Source: Candidatus Harpocratesius repetitus
Lineage (GTDB): Archaea > Asgardarchaeota > Lokiarchaeia > Sigyniarchaeales > Promethearchaeaceae
DNA: 32,000 bases
NCBI GenBank assembly: GCA_021498095.1
Contig: JAIZWK010000001.1
Location: forward strand, 2,370,001 to 2,402,000
Direction: 5' to 3'
Numbering within the stretch: position 1 is the first letter of the stretch; every line of letters starts with the position of its first letter. The notes under the pieces were generated by a model. The model saw only the letters and a list, made by a program, of their open reading frames with translations. It ran no database searches and was not told the DNA's origin. A program made the translations under genes and the position numbers. Below are positions 30,678-32,000 of the stretch, piece after piece.

Positions 30678-30820
30678 AGATTAAGTATAGATTAAGTATG
30701 AATTGAGCACAGATTAAGTATAAATTGAGCACAGATTAAGTATGAATTGAGCACAGATTAAGTATGAATTGAGCACAGATTAAGTATAAATTGAGTATAG
30801 ATTAAGTATAAATTGAGTAT
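30678..30820. repeat. Non-coding tandem array: six 22-bp units (AGATTAAGTAT[G/A]AATTGAG[CAC/TAT]) plus a leading 11-bp half unit
   Basis: Units at 30689, 30711, 30733, 30755, 30777 and 30799; half unit at 30678; no spacers. Confidence 0.95.
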
Positions 30821-30899
30821 ATAAGTATAGATGCAGTTCACTTCTCCATCTTTATATCAAAATCACAATATCCTTATTGAGCAATACTTTTTTTTTACT

Positions 30900-31241
30900 A
30901 TGATAATCTCAACTAAAGCTCTTCAATATATTGAAAAGCAGCGCCATTCATTCGAATTGCCTGTATTACTTTTGTATGAAAAAATATATCGTGGTTGATG
31001 CGGAATCTCAACCTATCCCAAAGCTTCACTTAGTTCTCGGAATTCTATCACTGATTTCTCAGCATACATAGAAATAACACAAATGAATTGGAAAGAACGC
31101 ATATGTACAAATCCGAATTACTGTGAGTTATTACAAATGCCAATTTTGATTACTCACCAACTCATGGAAGCATGGGATAGATTAGAAGTGCACCTTTATG
31201 GAAAGTACTTATACAAGCAGTTAATTCTCATGCGCACCTAA
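30900..31241 (+). CDS. Candidate selenoprotein, HesB-like / CC-Se-motif-like, 113 aa with Sec33 encoded by TGA 30996-30998
   Basis: Manual translation: MIISTKALQYIEKQRHSFELPVLLLYEKIYRG-U-CGISTYPKASLSSRNSITDFSAYIEITQMNWKERICTNPNYCELLQMPILITHQLMEAWDRLEVHLYGKYLYKQLILMRT*. The frame stays open for 80 codons after the TGA. An in-frame ATG at 30831 is an alternative start. Confidence 0.7.
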
Positions 31242-31242
31242 A

Positions 31243-31298
31243 GATATGGATGAATTCATCCCGCAAATTTTGGAATGAATGACGTCGAGCCATCGATT
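31243..31298 (+). ncRNA. Candidate eukaryote-type SECIS element in the 3' UTR
   Basis: ATGA (31250-53), 11 nt, AAA (31265-67), stem partner GGAATGAAT (31272-80), GA (31281-82); outer ATGG/CCAT pairing (31246-49 / 31290-93). Confidence 0.6.
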
Positions 31299-32000
31299 AT
31301 TATTCTTAGATGCGCTAAATATTATTAAAAAATTGTCTTCAATTCAAACTCGCAGTTATTGATGCTACAGCAGTGCTTCGTATATTACTTGAAATACAAA
31401 AACGAGATGCACTTATACTATGAAGAATATGCTGATGAAAGTGCCATGAATAATTTTAATGCATATTTAGATGCAATTGAGAGATTTATCGGATAAAAGA
31501 TTGGTCTGCTCATGTTTATAACGATAAATTAGAATTGATATTGGTTAGGCAGGATTTCGATATTAAAAAAAGGAAAGATGTTGATAAAGTTTATAAAATA
31601 GATGCATATAGTTGTATTTTTCCCAATAATGAAGCAGATTTTTCTGCTTTCATCAACTGCAGAGAAATTGAAATATCTGGAGAAACTCCATCTTAAAAAC
31701 CTAATAATATCTGGATTTGAATTTTCCTTTGCATACCAAAACATCCCTTAAAAAAAATTATAAAAATATTAAATTAATTAGAATGACTGATTATGCAAAT
31801 ATTGCTTTAGTAATCGCTGGATTAGTTCCTATTACTATTTCAGCAACGAAAGTAGAAAAATATTATACGGAATTTTATGGTTATACTTTAATTATCTTAG
31901 GTTTCATTTTAGATGAACAGATATATATTGAATTAATGATTATTGCTATATTTTTTATAATTTAAAAAAGAATTGTTGTTAGCAAATTAATAGAATAATA

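Follow-up and report, generated by a model that had tools for sequence, protein, structure and literature searches.

A candidate SECIS element of the Asgard eukaryote-like kind behind a small predicted selenoprotein gene in a Lokiarchaeia genome

SECIS elements of Asgard archaea have been described in two surveys, which provide the frame for the locus reported here. The lokiSECIS of the first survey (Mariotti et al. 2016, PMC4989117) consists of AUGA, a 9-bp stem, an A-rich loop of 11 nt that ends in G, and GA, all situated next to the stop codon; it was described behind VhuU, VhuD/HdrA and PrxL genes, SPS being followed by a variant of it, and no SBP2 was found in Lokiarchaeota. The second survey (Huang, Xiao & Zhang 2024, PMC11227280) distinguished eSECIS-like types I and II in Asgard archaea, in which a GA_[G/A]A core is combined with a stem of 7-15 bp and a loop of 8-20 nt; G[U/G]AAA is among the loop variants described. 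Five Asgard selenoprotein families are named in the first survey and seven in the second.

Here we describe a hairpin in the genome of Candidatus Harpocratesius repetitus, a single contig of 4.36 Mb with 31% GC, of which a stretch of 32,000 nucleotides was analysed as a whole (the window). Judged from sequence comparison, this hairpin is very probably a functional SECIS of the Asgard eukaryote-like type I, which lies in the 3'UTR of the mRNA of a small selenoprotein (CDS 30901-31241) and serves the in-frame UGA at 30996 (table 1). Provided that element and gene are on one transcript, as we assume, the AUGA/GA core would fold as a kink-turn, as in published Asgard and eukaryotic systems, and by the same analogy this kink-turn would recruit the Sec-specific elongation factor with Sec-tRNA(Sec), either directly or through a binding protein. 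The ribosome would then read UGA 30996 as selenocysteine, and the TAA located 8 nt before the element would be the true stop.

Table 1. Features of the candidate selenoprotein gene and its 3' element, in coordinates of the window.
Feature	Positions	Strand	Basis
Candidate selenoprotein CDS, 113 residues, ATG 30901, TAA 31239-31241	30901-31241	+	two same-frame ORFs joined by TGA; homologue alignment
In-frame UGA, putatively read as selenocysteine, motif Y-R-G-U-C-G	30996-30998	+	same alignment column in all 20 homologues
Predicted helix I, 5' arm; overlaps last three codons and stop	31232-31246	+	free and SECIS-constrained minimum-energy folds
TAA stop of upstream ORF	31239-31241	+	sequence reading
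Perfect 14-nt palindrome GGATGAATTCATCC, central EcoRI site; possible competing 5-bp hairpin burying AUGA	31248-31261	.	sequence
AUGA, 5' half of non-Watson-Crick core (putative kink-turn)	31250-31253	+	sequence; invariant in relatives' alignments
Helix II, 5' arm	31254-31262	+	pairs with 31272-31280; homologous helix covaries in relatives
Apical loop GCAAAUUUU, unpaired AAA at 31265-31267	31263-31271	+	sequence; AAA invariant in 16-element alignment
Helix II, 3' arm	31272-31280	+	sequence; aligned to 3' arm of both R1 and R2
GA, 3' half of core	31281-31282	+	sequence; invariant in both element alignments
Predicted side hairpin, 5 bp, loop GCCA, between core and helix I 3' arm	31284-31297	+	folds; same-place hairpin predicted in most relatives and VhuD
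Predicted helix I, 3' arm	31301-31315	+	13 pairs, three blocks, with 31232-31246

At the level of the gene, two short ORFs (30831-30998 and 31083-31241) share one frame and are joined by the TGA at 30996-30998, past which the frame stays open for 80 codons in a genome of 31% GC. The start codon was placed by alignment with the starts of the homologues. The resulting candidate protein can be aligned from end to end with 19 homologues, and none of the seven invariant residues (P21, U33, C34, G35, P81, G101 and L108) is missing from it; it also carries an insertion of 14 residues that is absent from every homologue. A close orthologue of this paralogue was found neither in the metagenome scan nor among the matches from 41 related genomes. 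Directly upstream of the gene lies an AT-rich tandem array (30678-30829, period ~22 bp) with TATA-like motifs, which could hold a promoter. A look-up of RNA runs covering 30700-31500 returned no entry.

An AlphaFold model based on the alignment of 20 sequences (pLDDT 88.4, pTM 0.80) resembles the IscA/HesB fold in that its six best structure matches in the PDB are IscA and SufA, but these matches are weak (E from 1.4e-3, TM about 0.5). Among curated protein families, NF041239 of NCBIfam ('CC/Se motif family (seleno)protein') is matched by 19 of the 20 family members with a best E of 1.8e-9, whereas the candidate itself reaches 14.9 bits (E 0.021) and thus remains below the curated cut-off of 40 bits, so that a relationship to NF041239 is likely but distant. 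The served family is like NF041239 also in that both UC and CC forms occur. TIGR01911 (HesB-like selenoprotein) matches a single member of the 20 (E 0.12) and Pfam Fe-S_biosyn matches four (E 0.044 or weaker), and nothing was returned when PDB sequences were searched with a profile of the family or when the read-through protein was used in a word-index search of proteins. The sole named database relative is a 'hypothetical protein, partial' of 63 residues from a Promethearchaeota MAG, i.e. the C-terminal fragment that is left if the UGA is read as a stop.

The UGA is conserved in all aligned homologues. A six-frame search of the 41 related genomes with the read-through protein yielded 21 matches in 11 genomes, each with exactly one in-frame TGA, and this TGA occupies the same column in 20/20 aligned homologues. 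With a profile, matches were obtained in 23 of 161 genomes of the class (39 of the 45 matches have one or two in-frame TGA codons), and within the taxonomic family to which the candidate's genome belongs, 12 of 13 other genomes have matches. The genome of the candidate itself contains two more single-TGA paralogues according to the six-frame search and a total of five profile matches, four of them with an in-frame TGA. Outside the window, a divergent fourth paralogue (G000:C1:2668700-2669080, minus strand) has two adjacent in-frame TGA codons (K-G-U-U-G) and a perfect AUGA-8 bp-AAAAAGUAUGG-GA element that starts ~40 nt past its stop; similar matches with two TGA codons are present in at least six related genomes.

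Conservation extends to the region behind the stop codon. In 16 of the 20 homologues, an AUGA-N-8 bp-loop-N-GA pattern is found 1-23 nt past the stop, with loops that hold AAAC or AAAU and that, except for the candidate's, comprise 10-17 nt. Fifteen family elements together with the VhuD element of the candidate's genome, with the candidate left out, were used for the covariation alignment as well as for a covariance model, R1. In this alignment, 92% of the helix II cells are paired and 8/8 pairs have changed on both sides, with a covariation score of 0.71 compared with 0.23 in shuffles and at most 0.30 in slid controls; the helix also covaries in an alignment of VhuD elements only (0.69 versus 0.27 in shuffles). 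One homologue without the strict pattern (L029) has an element that R1 finds at 27.3 bits. Three others (L021, L026 and L028) keep the TGA and have no element past the stop by either the pattern or R1 (best score 15.6 bits); the 3' region of L028 is GC-rich, and all three may carry another SECIS variant.

Full-length relatives in a large protein library provide a natural control. Some of them translate under table 11 and are genuine Cys forms, and in two of these no element was found past the stop (best score below 10 bits). A third Cys form (L051:117-473, on an ENA metagenome contig) reads TGC TGT, with TGC replacing TGA, and is close to a clade that otherwise contains Sec; its hairpin is kept at 44.9 bits with AUGA changed to UUGA, which suggests that Sec gave way to Cys recently in this gene and that the SECIS is a relic. 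In eight further library proteins (P0002, P0004, P0005, P0008-P0011 and P0017), W stands at the Sec position (G-W-C-G), which suggests that gene callers have used a TGA=Trp code on short Asgard contigs. Gene calling of this kind would hide selenoproteins as seemingly normal proteins.

Turning to the hairpin itself, all the features that the earlier note had read from the sequence were found there. The element had been said to start within 10 nt of the stop codon, and 8 nt separate the TAA from AUGA. The AUGA/GA core is present, as is a helix II of nine positions with eight standard pairs and one C.A mismatch (C31260/A31274), and AAA lies 11 nt past AUGA. The apical loop, described as shorter than in eukaryotic elements, comprises 9 nt, and helix II is shorter as well. 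In its outer part, helix II consists of the pairs A31254-U31280, U31255-A31279, U31256-A31278, C31257-G31277 and A31258-U31276, followed in its inner part by U31259-A31275, the C31260.A31274 mismatch, C31261-G31273 and C31262-G31272, with an optional G31263.U31271. If this last pair closes, the loop shrinks to 7 nt, and only with C31262-G31272 opened would it reach 11 nt. Both AUGA and GA are invariant in the 16 elements of the family and VhuD alignment as well as in 10 VhuD elements. The distance from the in-frame UGA to the hairpin is ~250 nt. Unlike in many relatives, the sequence after the candidate element contains no T run. In L019, L023, L024, L025, L027, L031, L032 and L037, the outer helix is followed, within ~10-20 nt of its 3' arm, by a run of at least six T, as archaeal termination right after a SECIS would lead one to expect.

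At a larger scale, the core hairpin seems to be embedded in a three-part architecture. An outer helix (helix I) and a side hairpin are present in both the free and the constrained folds of the candidate, and with these additions the element would extend over ~31232-31315, i.e. be wider than the span 31243-31298 at first assigned to it. The same layout recurs with unrelated sequences in most relatives and in VhuD, where the outer helix ends 2-6 nt before AUGA and a small hairpin usually follows GA. A test of helix I by the longest complementary run gave a weak signal (own mean 7.3 versus 6.2, sd 1.4, for mismatched flank pairs), and MAFFT with RNAalifold on extended flanks recovered helix II alone; helix I and the side hairpin are thus structure predictions. 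An outer pairing of AUGG with CCAU had also been proposed for the candidate: AUGG (31246-31249) and CCAU (31290-31293) are indeed complementary, but they do not appear as an exclusive pairing, because the folds prefer helix I and use CCAU in the side hairpin. As a whole, the 93-nt region is more stable than 198 of 200 shuffles (z = -2.54), whereas for the 70-nt core alone the unconstrained minimum-energy fold is unexceptional (z = -1.54) and prefers a hairpin formed by the palindrome. This unconstrained fold misses the SECIS shape because a G.A core carries no term in the energy model. As the stop and the three codons before it lie within the outer helix, this helix would be opened by a terminating ribosome, which fits a published remark on stop proximity, i.e. 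that the SECIS elements of Lokiarchaeota lie too near the stop codon to recode it (PMC4989117).

The earlier note had further proposed an Infernal search with known Asgard elements, which we ran twice, i.e. with R1 and with a second model, R2, that was built from VhuD 3'UTR elements only (from the candidate's genome and eight relatives), because the family elements are themselves unvalidated while VhuD is an established selenoprotein gene. Both models placed the candidate at the top of the window: R1 at 31244-31288 with 21.4 bits (E 0.016 over 64 kb; runner-up 12.7 bits) and R2 at 31244-31286 with 18.1 bits (E 0.069 over 64 kb; next 10.6 bits). Scaled to the ~100 nt past the stop, these E-values come to ~1e-4 or less. 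By R1 the candidate is the weakest member of the family (the members used for training score 38-59 bits, the second held-out paralogue 27.3), but by R2 it ranks fourth among the family loci, above most members. As VhuD elements of relatives on which R1 had not been trained reach 16.5-26.5 bits, 21.4 bits is typical of accepted elements under a foreign model. At the scale of the genome, the R1 score of the candidate alone is insufficient for significance, and when R1 was applied to the whole genome (150 of ~12,000 candidate sites were scored), three sites had E <= 1, with the candidate not among them. R1 also misses the element of the genome's SelD gene, which has ACGA and a 12-nt loop.

When the remaining elements of the family were condensed into a descriptor (ATGA-N-8 bp, one mismatch allowed-loop of 9-17 nt with AAA near its start-N-GA), this gave 37 matches in the genome (4.36 Mb, both strands), versus 12-27 in shuffles, and the chance of a match starting within 30 nt past one given stop is ~1.3e-4. 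Three identical matches to this descriptor on the plus strand (G000:C1:3456352, 3457390 and 3458427) are spaced ~1038 nt apart and suggest a tandem repeat unit, with upstream frames that look repetitive, stop-rich and not selenoprotein-like. A looser AUGA-stem-GA pattern was tried as a genome-wide SECIS finder and discarded as too noisy, with 1250 matches and 107 UGA-ORF contexts. In Rfam, the library of which we presume to contain the model of eukaryotic SECIS, a search of the whole window at the gathering threshold returned a tRNA alone; over the 251 nt of 31150-31400 with E <= 10, no SECIS family appeared among chance-level snoRNA, miRNA and lncRNA rows, of which a minus-strand C/D-box row can be attributed to the palindrome. 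Of the description as a eukaryote-type or Lokiarchaeal SECIS, the Asgard part is thus supported by both models, by context, by the Sec machinery and by the conserved TGA together with the element, whereas membership in the eukaryotic family is not, since Rfam lists none; 'eukaryote-type' is therefore to be understood as resemblance.

The genome also contains the machinery to go with such an element. SepSecS (443 bits) and EFSec/SelB (247 bits) score above their curated cut-offs, tRNA-Sec (59.8 bits) is above the Rfam threshold, and a PSTK-like gene (94.8 bits) is below the equivalog cut-off; SelD has one in-frame TGA and VhuD has two. By its gene content, the genome can decode Sec. A comparison with these same-genome Sec genes, also suggested in the earlier note, turned out in favour of the candidate: the 3' hairpins of VhuD and SelD have a GA...GA core, with AUGA in VhuD and ACGA in SelD as the 5' part, and share the loop motif GUAAACUUUG, of which the loop of the candidate is a close variant, and VhuD also shares the geometry and the three-part layout. 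The SelD 3' element itself (G000:C1:3802252-3802287, minus strand; L007:1260-1295) has ACGA instead of AUGA/GUGA and a 12-nt loop, and R2, like R1, fails to detect it. In a related genus, the VhuD elements L090, L091 and L092 from three genomes contain an internal tandem G.A/A.G mismatch in helix II (UUCGAGC / GCGAGAA), which possibly represents a second sheared G.A motif.

Some of the doubt that remains as to a working SECIS stems from the short loop, the mismatch in helix II, the missing T run and the lack of a close orthologue of this divergent paralogue. Some of these features would also suit a decaying relic, i.e. an element descended from a functional SECIS behind a divergent paralogue that is losing its function and at which Sec insertion is inefficient. 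The lowest R1 score in the family goes together with the short loop and the C.A mismatch, the protein has its private 14-residue insertion, and the hairpin of the Cys form with UUGA indicates that such structures could persist. Yet, the frame has remained open for 80 codons past the TGA at 31% GC, the seven invariant residues are kept, AUGA, GA and AAA are intact, and the model built on VhuD elements only scores the candidate above most family members, all of which makes decay an improbable explanation.

The palindrome that covers AUGA bears on two further alternatives. Its presence as a perfect 14-bp palindrome, as described in the earlier note, was confirmed, and the suggestion that it might act as a switch would imply that a functional SECIS is tuned by a palindromic hairpin that sequesters AUGA together with the helix II 5' arm. 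In the energy model the two folds are indeed isoenergetic, both as isolated hairpins (-4.8 kcal/mol each) and in context (-24.3 kcal/mol for the free fold, which has the palindromic hairpin, versus -24.1 with helix II enforced). This model ignores, however, the stabilizing G.A pairs and protein binding of the kink-turn, a hairpin of 5 bp is readily out-competed, and none of the 16 other elements carries a palindrome over AUGA. As it is unique to this copy, the switch is left unsupported and we regard it as very unlikely. It seems still harder to believe that the whole structure is unrelated to selenocysteine, i.e. a generic AT-rich 3' stem-loop that stabilizes or terminates the transcript, or an incidental palindrome around an EcoRI site. 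Such a view could draw on the unexceptional fold of the 70-nt core, which prefers the palindromic hairpin, and on the abundance of loose AUGA-stem-GA patterns, with 1250 of them in the genome. But position, strand, the AUGA, GA and AAA motifs and the helix geometry match what is seen in elements that follow other genes with a TGA, the probability of a chance match is ~1e-4, R1 and R2 both rank the candidate first in the window, the palindrome recurs in 0 of 16 relatives, and the T run typical of archaeal termination is absent. A functional SECIS thus remains our preferred reading.

If so, the value of this hairpin is that of a signpost which validates a hidden gene rather than that of a new mechanism. 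The element probably marks a multi-copy selenoprotein family of the Lokiarchaeia type, with small proteins of the IscA fold and a G-U-C-G or G-U-U-G motif, which is split by gene callers and absent from the two Asgard surveys as far as their accessible text goes, and whose elements share the three-part shape. Throughout the lineage, single genomes contain several copies of this family, and annotation always splits or truncates it. The accessible parts of PMC4989117 and PMC11227280 do not include it in either selenoprotein list, nor did we find in them a description of an outer helix, core hairpin and 3' side hairpin combined. In the accessible part of a 2026 review (PMC13188914), a table marks several archaeal families with a superscript 'a' but not NF041239, and a full-text literature search returned no paper that links the NF041239 family name, Asgard, selenoprotein and IscA. 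If our interpretation is correct, the Asgard selenoproteome gains a family otherwise predicted only in bacteria. Moreover, the family supplies natural SECIS variants, i.e. a loop of 9 nt, a helix II that contains a mismatch and, behind a Cys form, a relic with UUGA instead of AUGA, and these could show what features the archaeal SECIS reader needs and thus bear on the origin of the eukaryotic Sec system.

Among the known types of SECIS, the candidate differs from the canonical euryarchaeal one, which has a GC-rich lower stem of 10 bp, a GAA/A asymmetric bulge and an all-GC upper stem of 3 bp (PMC4989117); by sequence reading, the candidate does not conform to this, as it has no GAA/A bulge between GC-rich helices and an AU-rich helix II in which three of nine pairs are G-C. 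With eukaryotic SECIS elements it shares the AUGA/GA quartet, an unpaired AAA ~11 nt past AUGA, the location in the 3'UTR and the order of helix I, internal loop, core, helix II and apical loop, but helix II and the loop are shorter, no SECIS family of Rfam matches, and the eukaryotic model has no counterpart to the side hairpin that is predicted to separate the core from the helix I 3' arm. With the lokiSECIS (PMC4989117) the candidate shares AUGA directly before a stem of nine positions, GA directly after it, adenines in the loop and proximity to the stop, and lokiSECIS elements and the candidate alike are missed by eukaryotic and archaeal SECIS tools. Here the difference is in the loop, which is fixed at 11 nt in lokiSECIS but has 9 nt in the candidate, where it starts with GCAAA (A at three of the first five positions, which are mostly A in lokiSECIS) and ends in U; the ultraconserved final G would be present only with the last C-G pair open. 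The VhuD and SelD loops of the same genome (GUAAAC...) deviate from the lokiSECIS as the candidate's does.

A counterpart within the genome is the VhuD 3'UTR element (G000:C1:3155802-3155836, minus strand), which has the same AUGA-N-8 bp-loop-N-GA arrangement, a loop that starts with G-Y-AAA and continues U-rich, and the three-part layout, and which differs in a loop of 11 nt (GUAAACUUUGU) instead of 9 and in its first stem position, A.G in VhuD and A-U in the candidate. With Asgard eSECIS-like type I (PMC11227280), finally, agreement is broad: the candidate has an AUGA_GA core, a stem of nine positions with one mismatch where 7-15 bp with at most two are described, and a loop without a ministem, the 9 nt of which are within the range of 8-20 nt (7 nt, just below that range, if the optional G.U pair closes) and which starts with G-N-AAA, close to G[U/G]AAA. 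Its place is the 3'UTR of a gene whose in-frame UGA is conserved, the genome encodes Sec machinery, and the covariance model of accepted Asgard elements, i.e. the VhuD-only R2, recognizes it at 18.1 bits. The difference lies in the served gene family, which is not among the seven Asgard families in the accessible text of that paper. Thus, the type of SECIS is one already published (Mariotti 2016, PMC4989117; Huang 2024, PMC11227280), of which the candidate, by its sequence features, is a further example.
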